DNA of 64,000 nt from a virus (IMGVR_UViG_3300037477_000009:11514-75513); one strand, 5' to 3'; shown: positions 29,226-63,374, counted from the first letter of the stretch. Numbers and translations: made by a program. The notes: generated from the sequence alone by a model not told the origin.

Positions 29226-29363
29226 GGAGGGATACATTTTATATCTTTGAGCCAGCAACTCGATCTCAAATCATACATTAATCTTCTTCGATGTATAGTT
29301 TTGTGCCGCAGATAGAAGGTGGTTTCAACCACCTTCACCATCGGCACTTTAAAAAAAAAGAGT

Positions 29364-36398: not shown

Positions 36399-36939
36399 TA
36401 TTTGCCCACTTTTCGCAGTAGATGCAAATTTTCATCATCATATCAGGTGCATCGTTCCAAATATGGACACACTCTTTCGCATATGGCCTGAATGCACCAA
36501 AGCCACCAGTCACTGCACCACAGATCATGCAGGTTTCACCTTCAGAATTACCAGTACGATGAGAATGTGTGCAACCTTTGCGCCTGTTGGTCATCTTTAT
36601 CAAATCTTCTTCAGTGAGCCAGGTCACAACTTCTTTCACCTGGTCAAGTGTAAGTGTAGCACTCACTTCTTTTGGCATATCACTCTTCATCAGGATCGCT
36701 GTTCCTCTGATCGCACTGTGTGATCCAGTGATAAAGAAGAATGGCTTCTCTTTTCTGTACAATCCTTCCTCATCAATGTATAAAAAGTGATTTGTACCGA
36801 GTAGGAATGGTGAGAAGTTGAACATCTCGATGTGTTGGCAGCCGATGATCCAGTAGAACTCGGAGAGTTTAGGAATGATCATCGCTTCAGTGATCGTTCT
36901 CTCCTGTGGATTGATAATTATCGCTCTTATCTTTTCCAT
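36352..36939 (-). CDS. DUF3846-like domain protein with Cys-rich C-terminus
   Basis: RAIIINP...LSEFYWIIGCQHIE...LYIDEEGL. Confidence 0.55.
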   Translation of the reverse strand: MEKIRAIIINPQERTITEAMIIPKLSEFYWIIGCQHIEMFNFSPFLLGTNHFLYIDEEGLYRKEKPFFFITGSHSAIRGTAILMKSDMPKEVSATLTLDQVKEVVTWLTEEDLIKMTNRRKGCTHSHRTGNSEGETCMICGAVTGGFGAFRPYAKECVHIWNDAPDMMMKICIYCEKWANNERYDPNYKPAEDES

Positions 36940-37258
36940 TGGTTTTTGTTTTCTTATTCCGCAATTTGGTTAAAAGTTCGACTTCCTGCTTTCCTTTGAT
37001 CTTCGCCAGGTCGATCAGATAATTTACCTGGAATGCGATCCATACCAGCGCATCGATACCAAGTGCCTTCTCCAGCTTGAGTGCAACTGGTGCAGTGATG
37101 AACTGGTGGTCATTCAAAACAAGTTTGACGAAGGTTTCATCAGAACCCATCTTTTTTGCCAGGCTCTTCTTGCTCATCTTCCTGGCCTTGAGTTCATCTT
37201 TTAAAATTTCACCTGGTGAAGTAGCAAAGGCAGGGGTTAGTTCATTGATATTTGTCAT
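36887..37258 (-). CDS. higA: HigA-like antitoxin / XRE HTH protein
   Basis: ATSPGEILKDEL...MSKKSLAKKMG...ITAPVALKLEKALG...W..FQVNY. Confidence 0.8.
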   Translation of the reverse strand: MTNINELTPAFATSPGEILKDELKARKMSKKSLAKKMGSDETFVKLVLNDHQFITAPVALKLEKALGIDALVWIAFQVNYLIDLAKIKGKQEVELLTKLRNKKTKTNGKDKSDNYQSTGENDH

Positions 37259-38090: not shown

Positions 38091-38160
38091 TTTGTATAGT
38101 TTTTATTTTTGAGGGATATAATTTATATCCTTATCCACATTTGATTCACAGGTTATTCAC

Positions 38161-38680
38161 AAAAAGGGGTGCATAGTGTAGAAACAGTACGCACCCACCA
38201 TTAACCATTAAACCTTATCAATAAAAAGAGTTGATTTAAAACTCTTTACCTGGCTCAAAGGTAAAAGAGAATCACATAGAATTCCAAAAAAAAATCAGAG
38301 GCGATGTGGAAACACTGCCTCTGAAACCATTAAACAAAAATTGAAAAATCATCAATTTTCATTCATCTTAAAAGTGTATTCTAGGCTGACAAATGTGGAG
38401 ACATTTCCCTGATCCTAAAACCTTATCTTATGAGGCTGTGAAGGTAAGGTGGATTTCTATGGAATTCCAAAAAAAACCTGATGTGGAAACACCAGGTTTA
38501 AAACATATATAAAATGTAAACAAGATTGGTGGTGAAGGTACGACCAGGTTACATGGAATTCCAAATAAAAAAGACCAGGTGTAGAAACACCCGATCTTTC
38601 AGCTTTTGAGGCCTGATTAGTAGCGGTGCAAAAGTAGGTGGCCAGGCTATACGGCAATTATATAGAATTCCACAAAAAAG
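38161..38680 (-). ncRNA. Array of four putative small-RNA transcription units (promoter then hairpin/U-tract terminator) sharing a TGTTTCYACA hairpin apex
   Basis: Three TTTG-N21-TACCTT(TG/CA) promoters plus a TACTTTTG element; five hairpins with TGTRGARACA (plus-strand reading); no ORF. Confidence 0.6.
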
Positions 38681-38738: not shown

Positions 38739-39005
38739 ATGCGAGCAAATATGCGATCAGCAGTCCTGCTGCTGACAAAAGACACCAAGACAGGTAAGCG
38801 TAAAGGATATGTTTACTACACCGGAGAGAAAGGCGCAGTACAGTGCGATGTGATCTTGGGATCAGATCAGAAGATAATCATCGCCACTGGTGTAAAAGCA
38901 ATCGGTAAGGTCTTAAACTACTATCTCAAGGAAGGATACGAGATCACCTCCAGTGAGCCACACAAGGATGCGCTGCCTCAAAACAAAGAGGCCAGTGTTA
39001 CCTGA
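38739..39005 (+). CDS. Hypothetical protein
   Basis: 88 aa; AAACTATACA leader. Confidence 0.6.
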   Translation: MRANMRSAVLLLTKDTKTGKRKGYVYYTGEKGAVQCDVILGSDQKIIIATGVKAIGKVLNYYLKEGYEITSSEPHKDALPQNKEASVT

Positions 39006-39466
39006 CCTCAACGGAAAGAATCCATAGCCAAGAGCCTGGTTATACCAAGAAGGACTGCGATTGTCGGAATGCCCGTTGCGCTTGGCCAGCACAGTTGGTT
39101 AGAAATGCAGGAAAATCACCAACACTTCCGATGCGCACGATCTGCATTGACTGTCCTCCTGGTAAAAGATGAGGCCAGTGGAGAACCACCAGCCTGTAAT
39201 ACCCGTTTGCTTGTTAATTGCTACCTGAAGTTACGAAGGATACAAATTATATCCTCAAGAACAAGTTATCCACATCGCTCACTTTATCAATCTTGCTCAA
39301 ATCCGCACAATCTATAAGAAAAGCACTAACATCGGCATAACAAATAGTAACAAAAAGTAGCAAATCGCACAACTTAGAACAACCTGGTAATCAGTTTAGA
39401 ATGTGGATATAATTTATGTCTATCGCTCACTCCGGTCAGTAACTTGCTGACTTAACCTGGAGTGCT

Positions 39467-39775
39467 ATGGAAAAACTTTTGCACCTCACCTTGTCCTCAC
39501 CAATGCCATTTGGCAAGTTCAAGAACCAGGCGATCAGAAATGTTCCATTATCCTACTGGACATGGCTCTACGACAACCCTGAAGCTGTAGATAACTGGTG
39601 GAACAGATCACTCAGGAAGTTCATCGAGAACAATATTGACCTGTTCCTGATCGAATGTGGTGGTGAGGTCACCGATGAGATCATCCTGGTGGTGCAAAGA
39701 ATACAACTCAACCTGATAAAAAGAAAGAAGCGATCTAAAAAACGCAATCACGTTGCAATGCCTGAGTTGTTCTAA
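39467..39775 (+). CDS. DUF3820-like / ExoX C-terminal-like domain protein
   Basis: MPFGKFKNQAIRNVPLSYWTWL motif. Confidence 0.6.
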   Translation: MEKLLHLTLSSPMPFGKFKNQAIRNVPLSYWTWLYDNPEAVDNWWNRSLRKFIENNIDLFLIECGGEVTDEIILVVQRIQLNLIKRKKRSKKRNHVAMPELF

Positions 39776-39887
39776 TCAAAACCGCAGAAAACCGCCATGC
39801 GGCTGTCTCCATCCGGTGATGAAACCTGCCTTCCTGGTTCAATCACGCAAATAACCGCAATATAATCCGCAAAAAAAGAGGCCACTA

Positions 39888-39912
39888 TAGAGAATAGCGG
39901 CCTGATTCTACT
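39888..39912 (-). terminator. Hairpin with adjacent A-run (U-tract on minus strand)
   Basis: AGGCCACTAT-AGAGA-ATAGCGGCCT preceded by AAAAAAAG. Confidence 0.45.
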
Positions 39913-40529
39913 TTAAAATTAAAAAAATGGATGGAAATATGCCAGTGCAAAGATATAGGTTATATCCTACAGGTGATACAGGCGATATGTAAAGAAAAAG
40001 CCTGATCTCAGGCCGTAAAGTAGCACCTGGTTTACTTTCGGCACTTTCGGCTGACTTTCGGGAAAGTAGTGTTATAGGCTGGATATCAATTATATCCTTA
40101 CTTAACTTGAAAACAGCCAATGAGGATAGGGAGAAGGGGTATTACCTGGTAACGTGGGGGCGGCGATCTCAAGCGGAATTCAAAAGCGCAGACCGAGTGG
40201 CATCCGGTTTCCAGCGATTCAAAAGTAAACCGAGATTTGTAACTTAATTCTCCAAGAACTAAATAGAATGTGAGTAAAAAGCTGATATTCAGCAAGGTAT
40301 TAAGGTAACATGGATCGTAGGTCACATCATAGGTAACTTCAGGTGGGGGAATAGTGCATCACTGCGCTCTGATCACCAGCAATACACATCATGGATCGCA
40401 CACTGGCTACTCGCATCATGGTTGCATCTGTATGCGGCTTCGCCTTTATCCCATCACCACTCACATCAGTGTATCACCATGCACCACTTGCATCATGGTT
40501 GCACACCACGTTCCACATGGAATTCCATG

Positions 40530-52372: not shown

Positions 52373-52658
52373 GCTGCCAGAATTCATCAGTACCTTTGTT
52401 GCTGGCAGACAACTATTGATACGCACCACCAATCCGCATTTAATCGGTGAGGTGGTGCAGTATCAAAGCACAGATCAGATGTTACAGGCAGTTGGCTTAC
52501 TCAATGTAGATCATGTTCCCTACTTCATAAACACAAAGAGAAACGTGGCGATCATATTTGTAGGCGCAATGGGCAAGGTACAGATCACACCAGGCTTCCA
52601 ACAACAGATCAGAGAGGTCATCTTTACGATGGCCGATTACTATTTAAAAAATTTTTGA
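52359..52658 (+). CDS. Hypothetical protein
   Basis: Start reassigned to METIKL. Confidence 0.6.
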   Translation: METIKLPEFISTFVAGRQLLIRTTNPHLIGEVVQYQSTDQMLQAVGLLNVDHVPYFINTKRNVAIIFVGAMGKVQITPGFQQQIREVIFTMADYYLKNF

Positions 52659-52678
52659 TAACCCATAAAATAAGTACA

Positions 52679-52894
52679 ATGAAAAAACAGGACTTAGTGA
52701 AATCGGTATGCGCTGCCGTAAAAGAATTGCGCATCAGCAAAGATGTATCTCAGGTTGCGCTGGCTGAGAAGTCAGGAGTGGATCGCTCTTATATCATTCG
52801 CCTGGAAACAGGCACTGCAAACAATCCTTCTATTAAGCAGATCGAGAAATTGGTGAAGGCACTTGGTGGGAAGATCGTGATCACGATCTCCTGA
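52679..52894 (+). CDS. XRE-family HTH regulator
   Basis: VKELRISKDVSQVALAEKSGVDRSYIIRLETG..NPSIKQIEKLVKALG. Confidence 0.9.
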   Translation: MKKQDLVKSVCAAVKELRISKDVSQVALAEKSGVDRSYIIRLETGTANNPSIKQIEKLVKALGGKIVITIS

Positions 52895-53306
52895 TCATAG
52901 CCATGTTCCTTCTTACCAGTTCATTCTTCATCCACACTCTTTGCGCCAGGTCTTGGCGATTATAATTCCACAATTGATTACTGATCTTCTCTGCTGCCTC
53001 ACGCATCTTGATGCGATAGGTCGCTGACATTCGTCTGTAGTAAGGTAGATCGATGCGAAGGTAGTTGCAGATATCTTTCTCTCGGAAGCCAGTGGTTTCA
53101 GCCAGGCCAATAAAAACAATGACAGCAGTATCTGCACTGCACTCGATCTCAGGGTTGCAGTGGAACTTTCGTTGCATGGGTTTGTTCCATACAAACTGTC
53201 CTTTCAATGCACTTTCTATATCGCACAATTCCATAGTAGGATGACACTGGATTACGCTCTGAGGATACAATTGATATCCCAAATTAAGAATTTTTTTTAT
53301 CTTCAT
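52881..53306 (-). CDS. Hypothetical protein (DnaA C-terminal-like HTH possible)
   Basis: 141 aa; lone minus-strand gene. Confidence 0.5.
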   Translation of the reverse strand: MKIKKILNLGYQLYPQSVIQCHPTMELCDIESALKGQFVWNKPMQRKFHCNPEIECSADTAVIVFIGLAETTGFREKDICNYLRIDLPYYRRMSATYRIKMREAAEKISNQLWNYNRQDLAQRVWMKNELVRRNMAMIRRS

Positions 53307-53320
53307 TAAAACATATATAA

Positions 53321-53551
53321 ATGAAACAACACAACGGCCTCACACCAGCCGATCAGAAAATCTGTAAACGATTCCGTAAGACAAGGATCGAGGCAGAACA
53401 AACTCAAGCAATCTTTGCAAAGAAACTCGGAACTAACGTGCCATACATCAAGGCAGTCGAGCAGGAGAAATTTGTACCCAACTTTATGATCATGCGAAAG
53501 TGGTCGAGACTATATGACAAGGATTATAGCTGGATCATCGATGGCAAATAA
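53321..53551 (+). CDS. XRE-family HTH regulator
   Basis: FRKTRIEAEQTQAIFAKKLGTNVPYIKAVEQEKFVP. Confidence 0.8.
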   Translation: MKQHNGLTPADQKICKRFRKTRIEAEQTQAIFAKKLGTNVPYIKAVEQEKFVPNFMIMRKWSRLYDKDYSWIIDGK

Positions 53552-53563
53552 AACTGAGAATTC

Positions 53564-53595
53564 TTTGGAATTTCCGAGAAGTCGTTTATCTTAGG
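53564..53595 (+). promoter_or_regulatory. Bacteroidota sigma-type promoter
   Basis: TTTG-N19-TATCTTAG upstream of the 53631 paralog trio. Confidence 0.55.
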
Positions 53596-60779: not shown

Positions 60780-60960
60780 CAGACAGATTATATAGAATAA
60801 CATAGATTCTATATAATATTATGCACAACTATTGTGCATTTTTCTGCACACTTTTTCCATAGATTTATCCACATTTAGAATTCCACAGAAAAATTTTGCT
60901 ATAGAATACCATAGCAATTATATTTATATATAATTTTATACTTAATTCTATGGAATTCTT
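60780..60960. promoter_or_regulatory. cI/cro divergent control region with clustered TTCYAYRGAA-like operators
   Basis: TTATATAGAA 60786, TTCTATATAA 60805, TTCCATAGAT 60855, TTCCACAGAA 60881, TGCTATAGAA 60897, TTCTATGGAA 60946. Confidence 0.6.
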
Positions 60961-61014: not shown

Positions 61015-61434
61015 ATGAACTTTATGGACTTGTCGTTAGGTGCAATTATTAGTCAAGCCAGGAAGCGTAAGAATCTCACACAAGGTGAGGTTGCCCGACA
61101 GATAGATATGAAGCTGTCAACTTATGCGAAGAAAGAAACTGATGGCGGTTTCACTGAAGAGCAACTCAAAAAACTCTCAAAGTTGCTTCAGTTAAAGTTA
61201 GTGGAGTTACAAAAAGCAAAGGAGCGAGGTGTTGTCATTATTCCAGATGCGATAAAAACGCTGATAGAAAAGGCACTGGTCAATGAGGCTTGCCAGCGTG
61301 TTTTACTGGAGGATATGGCTTATGTGATCGCTGAGATGAAGAAGATGAAGGTCGGTGCTGTGCGGCTTGCGCAGGAGACGAGAATAACCGATGTCCTTGC
61401 ACAACTAAGTCAGCAATACGGATCGCAAGACTGA
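61015..61434 (+). CDS. CI-like repressor (XRE HTH; no S24 peptidase domain)
   Basis: ISQARKRKNLTQGEVARQIDMKLSTYAKKETDG; divergent from cro-like gene. Confidence 0.75.
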   Translation: MNFMDLSLGAIISQARKRKNLTQGEVARQIDMKLSTYAKKETDGGFTEEQLKKLSKLLQLKLVELQKAKERGVVIIPDAIKTLIEKALVNEACQRVLLEDMAYVIAEMKKMKVGAVRLAQETRITDVLAQLSQQYGSQD

Positions 61435-61596
61435 TCTTTTGTTTTTTGGGCTGTGACATAGGCGGTTTCTTTGTGGTTTAATGGTAAAAGTAAATTCCCT
61501 GAAAGGGTAAGTTAAGAAATTAGATAATTCTATAGATATTTGGGAACAGATTTCTATAGAATTTTTTTTGCACATACACCAAACCAATCTCGTTTT

Positions 61597-62126: not shown

Positions 62127-63374
62127 TTAAAAGTTTTTCCAGAATAATTCAACCTCCTTGCCGATCTTTTCCTCCGTTACATCATAATAACTATCAACAC
62201 AGGTCTGCATATCGATAGCCATCAGTGTGGCGCATACCTCACATGATATTCCACTATTAGCACAGAGTTCTACGGCAAAAGTCTTTCTTCCGCAGTGACT
62301 GGTTATGTGCTTATTGATCTCAAGGTCTGCCATTGCTTCACCAATGTTTTCATTGATATCTTTTAATTGCTCAGTGGTAAGCGGATGCCTCTTCATAAAC
62401 TCAAACAAACGCAACAGTCTTTTAGTCGCTGGAATAACAACTGGCTCACCAGTTTTTTTCGTAACCATTCCTGCAATACCACGCTTAGTAATGTGCTTGC
62501 GTGGATCAAACCTGTACCAGTCGCTTACACGAAGGCCAGTACAGCATCCAAAAAGAAGATAAAGTGTTGCCAGTTTTTTGTAGTATGGAGATGTTCCTTT
62601 TCTGTAGAATTTTCTCCTGGTTACTTTGTGATCATCGATATCACTAATATATTCCTCAACCATATCCAGCTCTGCAAGAGTCAGGTACTCTTTTTTCTTA
62701 ACATCTACAGCCTCTGGAAGTTTATAGCCAGCGAATGGTTTGAAATTGATCACACCCTCTGTGTGTGCCTGCTCGCAAAACTGTTTAATCACTTTCATGT
62801 TCTCCCGTATAGTGTTGCCACCATACTCCAGCGTTTTCATATCCATCTGCATCTTCTTTAAGAACTTCACATTGATCTGTGAGAACATCAGGTTAGTACC
62901 ATCAAGATACTTCTCCAGCATACGGAAAGTATTCCTGAATATAGATACCCTTCCTTCTCCTTCCTTATGCTTCTCAGGATTCGTTGTGATCATAAAATTG
63001 ATGTGCGAGTTCACATAAGTGAAGATGTTCATATCGTTCCTGATCATCGGATCAACTCCATCTGCCTTGATATCGTTCTTCACTAAAGCCAGGTCAACAT
63101 TCCCTTCGCCATTAACACGAAGGAAATCATAACGCTTCGTAAGATCGGCTTCCATTGTTCTGAGTTCTCCGTTGATCATCTCTGCCTGTGGATGCACATT
63201 ACTGCCCTTCTCTTTTAAACGAGCCTTGTTATTATCCCACTGATTTTCGGATGCGTAATACTTTGTACTCTTCAAAACAGTTTGGCCATTCAGATATAAC
63301 CTGAGATAGATGGCGAACTGATCTTTAGAATTCTTCTTGTTTGATTTTAAATGAGGCGTGATTGTGAATGACAT
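62127..63374 (-). CDS. int: Tyrosine integrase (arm-binding N-terminus, SAM-like core, catalytic domain)
   Basis: IYLRLYLNG arm domain; TGLRVSD (R), SHCGRKTFA (HxxR), terminal Tyr in DSYY. Confidence 0.92.
   Translation of the reverse strand: MSFTITPHLKSNKKNSKDQFAIYLRLYLNGQTVLKSTKYYASENQWDNNKARLKEKGSNVHPQAEMINGELRTMEADLTKRYDFLRVNGEGNVDLALVKNDIKADGVDPMIRNDMNIFTYVNSHINFMITTNPEKHKEGEGRVSIFRNTFRMLEKYLDGTNLMFSQINVKFLKKMQMDMKTLEYGGNTIRENMKVIKQFCEQAHTEGVINFKPFAGYKLPEAVDVKKKEYLTLAELDMVEEYISDIDDHKVTRRKFYRKGTSPYYKKLATLYLLFGCCTGLRVSDWYRFDPRKHITKRGIAGMVTKKTGEPVVIPATKRLLRLFEFMKRHPLTTEQLKDINENIGEAMADLEINKHITSHCGRKTFAVELCANSGISCEVCATLMAIDMQTCVDSYYDVTEEKIGKEVELFWKNF

Follow-up and report, generated by a model that had tools for sequence, protein, structure and literature searches.

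In Bacteroides thetaiotaomicron, the multicopy FopS/GibS sRNAs block translation by pairing beside the start codon (PMC11697453). They consist of a free 5' stretch and a terminator hairpin, exist as many paralogues with canonical promoters, and bind the protein RbpB (PMC11697453). The sRNA array considered here lies on the minus strand at positions 38161-38680 of a 64,000-nt stretch of viral DNA (the window), and it resembles FopS/GibS in that it comes from the same phylum, has many paralogues per genome and uses canonical Bacteroidota promoters. Also the mode of action proposed for it, at translation start regions, is alike, and a FopS copy occurs in a phage as well. Unlike FopS/GibS, the array is a compact, operator-controlled tandem in a phage, in which two members have replaced 5' tails; there is no similarity in sequence or model, and the host family here is Chitinophagaceae. 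The FopS model RF04319 (cut-off 56 bits), which as a positive control gave matches in B. thetaiotaomicron, had no match in the array or in the host copies of the sRNA family described below. Its best and only match in the phage is a weak one (17.8 bits) at 52603-52690 on the minus strand, just past the 3' end of a 141-aa ORF that is divergent from a helix-turn-helix (HTH) gene at 53321.

Short phage RNAs with a role in the lysis-lysogeny decision are the c4 RNA of P1/P7, the sar RNA of P22, the CI RNA of P4 and the OOP RNA of lambda. By base pairing they target the start region or leader of a regulatory gene in the phage; each is a single gene that lies opposite or next to its target. One member of the array, unit B, is like these antisense immunity RNAs in that it may pair with the start of an HTH gene of its own phage, but it lies 15 kb from this candidate target and is part of a paralogous array with a host-type scaffold. 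Sets of sibling sRNAs that each have their own promoter and terminator are represented by LhrC1-5 in Listeria and Qrr1-5 in Vibrio, which answer to one regulator and share their seed, whereas the phage units share the hairpin apex and differ in their 5' parts. Guide RNAs of the dCas12f/TnpB type in Bacteroidota have a large scaffold and a 3' guide and are encoded beside dcas12f-rpoE (PMC13472631). The idea that the phage RNAs are such guides was rejected, as they end in a terminator hairpin and no such genes were found among the neighbours scanned.

The window comes from an IMG/VR virus record of 75.5 kb, which is rated "complete" by CheckV. As a portal protein, a large terminase, a virion protein, a primase/helicase and an integrase are all encoded, the virus is a temperate tailed phage; it is a phage of soil Bacteroidota, and its host is probably a Chitinophagaceae bacterium. 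No DNA relative of it was found in the phage database, and the closest IMG/VR terminases are only about 33% identical to that of the phage. One syntenic relative, a 20.3-kb contig in ERZ3979533 that encodes P0008, was found, and a further contig (L149), at 100% identity to the window, is uninformative. Among the proteins encoded near the array, the HTH neighbour has no relatives in IMG/VR and no homologue at all was found for an 88-aa neighbour. The whole window has no Rfam family at gathering thresholds and no tRNA according to ARAGORN. The array lies in a 648-bp gap between divergent gene sets, in a divergent control region, directly upstream of a minus-strand operon. Its surroundings are as follows.

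From 38739, plus strand: ORFs to the right of the array
38114-38130: palindrome GGATATAAATTATATCC, between the last terminator of the array and the first gene of the minus-strand operon
From 38090, minus strand: operon of a 57-aa ORF (start 38090), a 131-aa ORF (start 37907), an 80-aa ORF, a 123-aa HTH gene (36887-37258) and a DUF3846 gene

A separate observation concerns the word AAACTATACA, which has 10 exact copies in the window, and 21 copies at no more than one mismatch where 5.5 are expected. The exact copies are at 29292, 29880, 30662, 37907, 38093, 38727, 43083, 49317, 53618 and 63378. Those of them that were compared with a listed ORF start stand 3-4 nt before the start codon, and the genes behind them, the integrase among them, open transcription units. 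The word may be a phage-specific leader or translation-start signal.

The initial annotation had described 38161-38680 as a tandem array of small-RNA units, each with its own promoter and terminator, and had placed all of them on the minus strand. Its coordinates were all confirmed, the paralogous, independent units are supported, and 38161-38680 is a real tandem array of sRNA genes. There are four promoter-like sites and five hairpins, and all five hairpins have the apex UGU-YUCY-ACA in common. The four units, named A to D in the direction of transcription, are made up as follows, with RNA starts set 6-7 nt past the -7 box and RNA ends as predicted.

38629-38679, minus strand: promoter A, with -7 box TACTTTTG (38629-38636), operator-like GGAATTCTATATAA (38658-38671) and a poor -33 element
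38567-38622, minus strand: predicted sRNA A, about 56 nt, with a unique 5' tail that begins UACUAAUCAGGCC, fold -19.7 kcal/mol, z -4.1
38570-38599, minus strand: terminator hairpin of sRNA A, apex UGUUUCUACA
38533-38565, minus strand: promoter B, with TTTG (38562-38565) from the end of the unit A U-run, operator-like TTCCATGTAA in the spacer and -7 box TACCTTCA (38533-38540)
38469-38526, minus strand: predicted sRNA B, about 58 nt, with an AU-rich 5' tail, fold z -4.3
38474-38499, minus strand: terminator hairpin of sRNA B, apex UGUUUCCACA
38439-38471, minus strand: promoter C, with TTTG, the perfect palindrome TTCCATAGAA (38455-38464) in the spacer and -7 box TACCTTCA (38439-38446)
38286-38432, minus strand: predicted sRNA C, about 147 nt with the first U-run as its end, fold z -3.9
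38388-38409, minus strand: hairpin of module C1 of sRNA C, a module with the family core CAUAAGAUAAGGUUU
38295-38324, minus strand: terminator hairpin of module C2 of sRNA C, a module with the partial core GUUUAAUGGUU
38256-38288, minus strand: promoter D, with TTTG, operator-like TTCTATGTGA and the perfect -7 box TACCTTTG (38256-38263)
38161-38249, minus strand: predicted sRNA D, about 89 nt, with a 5' hairpin and the family core GAUAAGGUUUAAUGGUUAAUGGU, fold z -3.6
38167-38196, minus strand: terminator hairpin of sRNA D, apex UGUUUCUACA

The pattern TTTG-N21-TACCTT, three promoters of identical geometry according to the initial annotation, occurs exactly three times in the window (0.51 expected), each time inside the array; only the box of promoter D is a perfect TAnnTTTG. 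A fourth -7 box that had been proposed for unit A is present, but it lacks a TTTG at the correct spacing. In three of the four units the promoter TTTG consists of the end of the preceding terminator's U-run and a G, which makes the array very compact. The hairpins fold as had been described, and four of them are followed by a U-run, but the C1 hairpin is not. The shared apex, searched as TGTYTCYACA, has five copies between 38177 and 38589, every one on the minus strand, and seven matches in the whole window against 1.04 expected, a number reached by none of 100 shuffles. Also the words GUUUAAUGGUU and AUAAGGUUU occur twice each, as had been noted. In each predicted RNA the 5' part is open and the 3' end folds into a strong hairpin (fold z -3.6 to -4.3), and the predicted lengths are 56 (A), 58 (B), 147 (C) and 89 nt (D). 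That the units are transcribed at all follows from these modelled promoters and ends and is to be read as a prediction. The alternative that translation of plus-strand micro-ORFs accounts for the conservation did not hold: the micro-ORFs, on either strand (39, 66, 45 and 31 aa), are not conserved in the homologous array of a second phage or in 80 loci of the sRNA family, with no protein-level conservation (all E >0.09), and the reading frame of the apex differs from copy to copy.

Outside the gap there is an additional unit of promoter, hairpin and U-run.

39871-39955, minus strand: predicted RNA of about 70 nt, apex UAUUCUCUAUA, fold z -4.7

Its -7 box TATCTTTG overlaps a GGATATA-N3-TATATC palindrome, and the covariance model R1 described below gives it 18.3 bits (E 0.09); it may be a sixth small RNA of the same control region. 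With this unit included, combinations of hairpin and U-run lie on the minus strand of the region 38740-40300 at 38988-39009, 39172-39195, 39871-39940 and about 39990-40013, and some of them are preceded by GGATATA-N3-TATATC palindromes overlapping with -7-like boxes. No family match was obtained for the two ORFs predicted on the plus strand here (88 aa and 82 aa), and much of these 1.6 kb may be non-coding.

The TTCTATGGAA-type operators that had been noticed in the promoter spacers are indeed there, and copies of their palindrome also stand at further control regions in the phage genome. All four spacers (-33 to -7) contain a palindrome of the type TTCYATRGAA, with the extended form AATTCYATRGAATT; it is perfect in unit C, and in units A, B and D its right half differs at one or two positions. 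The operator-like box TTGGAATTCYAT has four copies in the array. In the window, the 12-mer form has 27 matches where 7.3 are expected, and the perfect 10-mer palindrome occurs four times where 0.42 is expected. Other sites of the box are at 40517, 42508, 53227, 53559-53572 and 61526-61563, and the boxes are densest at 60788-60957, near the following genes.

60788-60957: box cluster, before the CI-like gene
61015-61434, plus strand: CI-like 139-aa HTH_3 gene
62127-63374, minus strand: integrase, close to the CI-like gene, lysogeny module

Together, 60788-60957 and 61526-61563 hold about seven boxes, between minus-strand replication genes and the HTH_3 gene. This region has the look of the phage's main immunity switch, and the 139-aa CI-like protein is the likely candidate for the reader of the array operators. 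A box between -33 and -7 stands where a repressor blocks RNA polymerase, and the array is thus probably held off or tuned. The CI-like repressor of the phage would silence or tune the array and release it together with other early units, and all of its RNAs would probably be made together, at a single stage of the phage's life. Both the operator-binding protein and a regulation by base pairing are inferred.

By sequence, modules C1 and D, and in part C2, are members of a multicopy sRNA family encoded in Chitinophagaceae chromosomes. Rfam lacks this family, and no report of it turned up in the literature searched. The hallmark of this family is a single-stranded, conserved 5' core of 27 nt, AAUUUUCAUAGGAUAAGGUUUAAUGGU, which is carried by C1 and D; units A and B are without it, as they have kept the hairpin apex and have different 5' tails. 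A pattern scan for the shared pre-hairpin word ATAAGGTTTWANGRT, a gap and then the apex found three contigs in IMG/VR and 27 places in species-representative genomes, of which 24 are clear copies, nearly all from Chitinophagaceae (e.g. Puia, Agriterribacter) or unclassified Bacteroidota MAGs. The copies begin with (A)AUUUUCAUAGGAUAAGGUUUAAUGGU at a fixed distance past a TAnnTT box, which 38 of 66 distinct copies have at the expected spacing, and they have a terminator at the end. In the alignment A2 of 20 sequences, 95.4% of the cells pair and six of the nine stem pairs change on both sides; the both-side changes, in 49 cells, fall on the six lower pairs, and the top three (UGU/ACA) are invariant. 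The covariation score was reached by none of 500 shuffles, and slid registers scored far lower. Covariation gave no backing for a conceivable pairing, within the molecule, of the core (UAGGA) with the loop (UUCUA).

The covariance model R1, which was built from the alignment A2, recovers all five hairpins of the window, with D at 58.3 bits (E 6e-10), C1 at 46.5 and C2 at 30.1, whereas the lower scores of B (25.7) and A (21.6) come from the hairpin and U-run only. It finds two to five copies per genome in five host-type genomes, and it matches 38 of 121 sampled host-like family genomes (Chitinophagaceae by record titles) as against 4 of 151 genomes sampled across the phylum. Tandem sets are also found in host chromosomes, one of which (L069) has four copies. 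There is a long form of about 85 nt, in which the core is continued by UAAUGGUWUUUGAUUAG and the terminator loops are arbitrary, and a short form of about 60 nt with the terminator cap G-U-[UUCY]-A-C, and the phage units are of the short kind. Compared with this family, C1 and D have the core and the covarying terminator and C2 has part of the core, but in the phage array A and B lack the core, the U-runs of the terminators supply the next TTTG, and a phage operator is present on all units. In Rfam 15, the window and the host copies had no match at gathering thresholds and gave only noise (E up to 5).

Among phages the core is found on 26 stretches from about 24 IMG/VR contigs. In one of them (L132:464-671) it lies between tRNA-Met and tRNA-Trp, clearly without a U-run of its own, and in another (L139:5129-5286) directly after tRNA-Ala. 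The absence of a U-run inside the tRNA cluster suggests that this RNA is released by processing, probably by tRNA-processing enzymes. In six Chitinophagaceae/Bacteroidota MAGs (L039, L040, L043, L048, L057, L058), one sRNA copy is found at a fixed chromosomal site, with a 371-aa gene starting MKFIVSSSALLKQLQ, dnaN-like to judge by this start, and a 73-78-aa gene starting M(K/N/Q)FIELC as neighbours. A third, single-copy sRNA-like gene is kept in all five genomes searched for it (G001, G212, G004, G192, G220; the loci in the first three are L172:1460-1520, L174 and L176). Read on the opposite strand from the pattern, its sequence is UUUUCAUAGGGUACGGAUU and then a hairpin, with the cap GUGUCUAC or GGUUUCUACC in two copies, and it has the 5' word and the apex in common with the family, but not the middle part.

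A homologous array is present on a contig from another metagenome (L032), which was found through the 131-aa neighbour; a metagenome scan with the 131-aa family returned this contig again and nothing else. There the array precedes an operon of SHOCT, DUF3846 and 130-aa genes, and it includes homologues of A, C1 and C2, whose stems differ and whose apexes (TGTTTCCACA, TGTTTCTACA, TGTGTCCACA, TGTATCCACA) are of the same kind. The homologue of unit A has the same 5' words, the homologue of C1 has a full terminator and that of C2 has none. In the promoter of the corresponding unit, TTCCGTAGAA takes the position of the operator box. Unit B is absent from L032, which fits with a tail made for the own 53321 gene of the phage in the window. 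Just upstream of the L032 array (180-330) there are five repeats at a spacing of about 30 bp with the core ATTTTCCCACC, one of which reads TTTTCCACA and is DnaA-box-like; these repeats look like iterons.

An antisense function had also been suggested for the array, and here a concrete candidate emerged for one unit only.

53306-53331, plus strand: start region of the candidate target of sRNA B
53321-53551, plus strand: coding sequence of this target, a 76-aa XRE-type HTH protein (HTH_19, 31.4 bits against a Pfam cut-off of 30.2)

The 5' tail of unit B has 16 nt of perfect complement to 53306-53321, ending at the A of the ATG, and the whole duplex has 24 bp with two one-base bulges, covers about -15 to +10 and reaches -19.6 kcal/mol. 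A match of at least 16 nt arises by chance in 2 of 200 shuffles of B and for 2 of 400 random 58-mers of the genome. The gene is divergent from the 141-aa ORF, a layout typical of switch regions. The duplex is AU-rich and its energy is no better than that of the best shuffled-seed matches. The plus strand has the 16-mer at both places in the same orientation, as a direct repeat, so the two copies could be a shared DNA-binding site instead of pairing partners. From the sequence, the odds that unit B pairs with this start region are about even, and if it does, the tail would block translation of the HTH gene. For A, C and D no phage target beyond chance was found, neither by energy nor by the length of perfect complement, and among the duplex energies of the 5' tails with all start regions of the phage none was better than with shuffled tails. 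The 5' words of unit A had 28 matches in IMG/VR, all of them coding, and the array-junction pattern had one chance match there, in a coding region. The family core contains the anti-start word UUUUCAU; a search with the core against the mRNAs of five host-type genomes gave no target and only the sRNA-like genes on the opposite strand, and in three host-type genomes there was no significant complement to 16S rRNA, the 3' end of which is CCUCCUUUUUAGA and not the apex word.

It is probable that the four sRNA genes with their five modules encode repressor-controlled, trans-acting base-pairing sRNAs on a scaffold that derives from the host family. Each gene would have a Bacteroidota-type promoter and an intrinsic terminator at its end, and the design would be a single-stranded 5' part followed by the terminator hairpin, as in the multicopy host family. 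C1 and D with the full core and C2 with a part of it would probably act on the targets of host sRNAs, and A and B would have retained the hairpin and acquired new 5' tails. By analogy, the action of the units most likely resembles that of the FopS-type start-site blockers and of the classical phage antisense immunity RNAs. The conserved apex is most likely a protein handle or a stability element.

The RNAs might also be a decoy, whose five hairpins and GGA/AAGG-rich core titrate an RNA-binding protein of the host or the phage, with little importance of the tails. This would account for an invariant UGU-YUCY-ACA on freely varying lower stems and for five copies at one locus, and in Bacteroides the RRM protein RbpB, to which the FopS RNAs bind, is a competitor of their target pairing (PMC11697453). 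In the long form of about 85 nt, however, the loops are arbitrary and the constant part of the family is the 5' core and not the apex, the unit B tail has a specific 24-bp complement at a start codon, and no candidate binding protein is encoded beside the array, all of which makes a sponge unlikely.

The hairpins could also act in cis, as attenuators or nut/boxB-like sites that govern read-through into the minus-strand operon, and the conserved apex would then be read by an antiterminator. The array does lie directly upstream of the adjoining operon on the same strand, so that some read-through or leader function is possible, and strand and position are those of an operon leader in both the window and L032; each array has one hairpin without a U-run, namely C1 in the window and the last hairpin in L032, and boxB likewise is a conserved loop on variable stems. 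But the same RNA stands alone in hosts, between convergent genes and after a dnaN-like gene, as well as in phage tRNA clusters, every unit has its own promoter and operator, and a scan of neighbouring proteins recognised none that is N- or Q-like. It is thus improbable that the array is mainly a leader.

A function at the level of DNA only, with the palindromes as repressor operators or the region as an origin with DnaA-like boxes and the hairpins as insulating terminators, would agree with operator palindromes that are real and common to other control regions, and with the five ATTTTCCCACC-like repeats that flank the L032 array. Insulation would not need five one-way terminators with promoters of their own, though, and the 5' core and hairpin are kept as a unit in many unrelated genomic contexts, with stems whose covariation indicates selection on RNA or single-strand pairing, which leaves little probability for this explanation. 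That the array mimics defence RNAs, as CRISPR repeats (Racr) or as a type III antitoxin array of the ToxI/CptI kind, an idea of the initial annotation suggested by tandem, structured, promoter-driven units in a phage, is without support and very improbable, since the units have only 10 nt in common, differ outside the apex, unlike the near-identical repeats of ToxIN/CptIN, have individual promoters and terminators instead of being cut from one repeat transcript, and have no ToxN/AbiE-type nuclease, other toxin or defence protein among ten neighbouring proteins in Pfam, PHROG or PADLOC, and since the apex word is no CRISPR repeat in five family-carrying genomes, where it is scattered (30-57 matches against 23-36 in the reversed control) and never in periodic arrays, with one match per stretch in each of the family loci.

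Within the preferred reading of trans-acting base-pairing sRNAs, a more far-reaching and still doubtful idea is that the host sRNA design is a re-targetable scaffold, in which the hairpin is a stabiliser or a handle for a host RNA-binding protein, the 5' tails are swapped so that every sibling has its own target mRNA, and the phage repressor is the common switch. Some siblings would then copy the host seed and thereby hijack the host regulon, and others, such as B with the HTH regulator of its own phage, would be wired into the lysis-lysogeny circuit.

The regulatory RNA biology of Bacteroidota beyond the gut Bacteroides is almost unexplored, and only a handful of phage-encoded trans-acting sRNAs are known. 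The locus, where a phage has five siblings modelled on a host sRNA and places them all under the same operator, is a compact natural system, in which sRNA B and the 53321 start region are a directly testable pair, and the hairpin cap is a possible bait for an RNA-binding partner in Chitinophagaceae. For the family as a whole, the model R1 is now available together with its distribution, which comprises about one third of the sampled family genomes, few genomes from the rest of the phylum, and 24 or more phage contigs.
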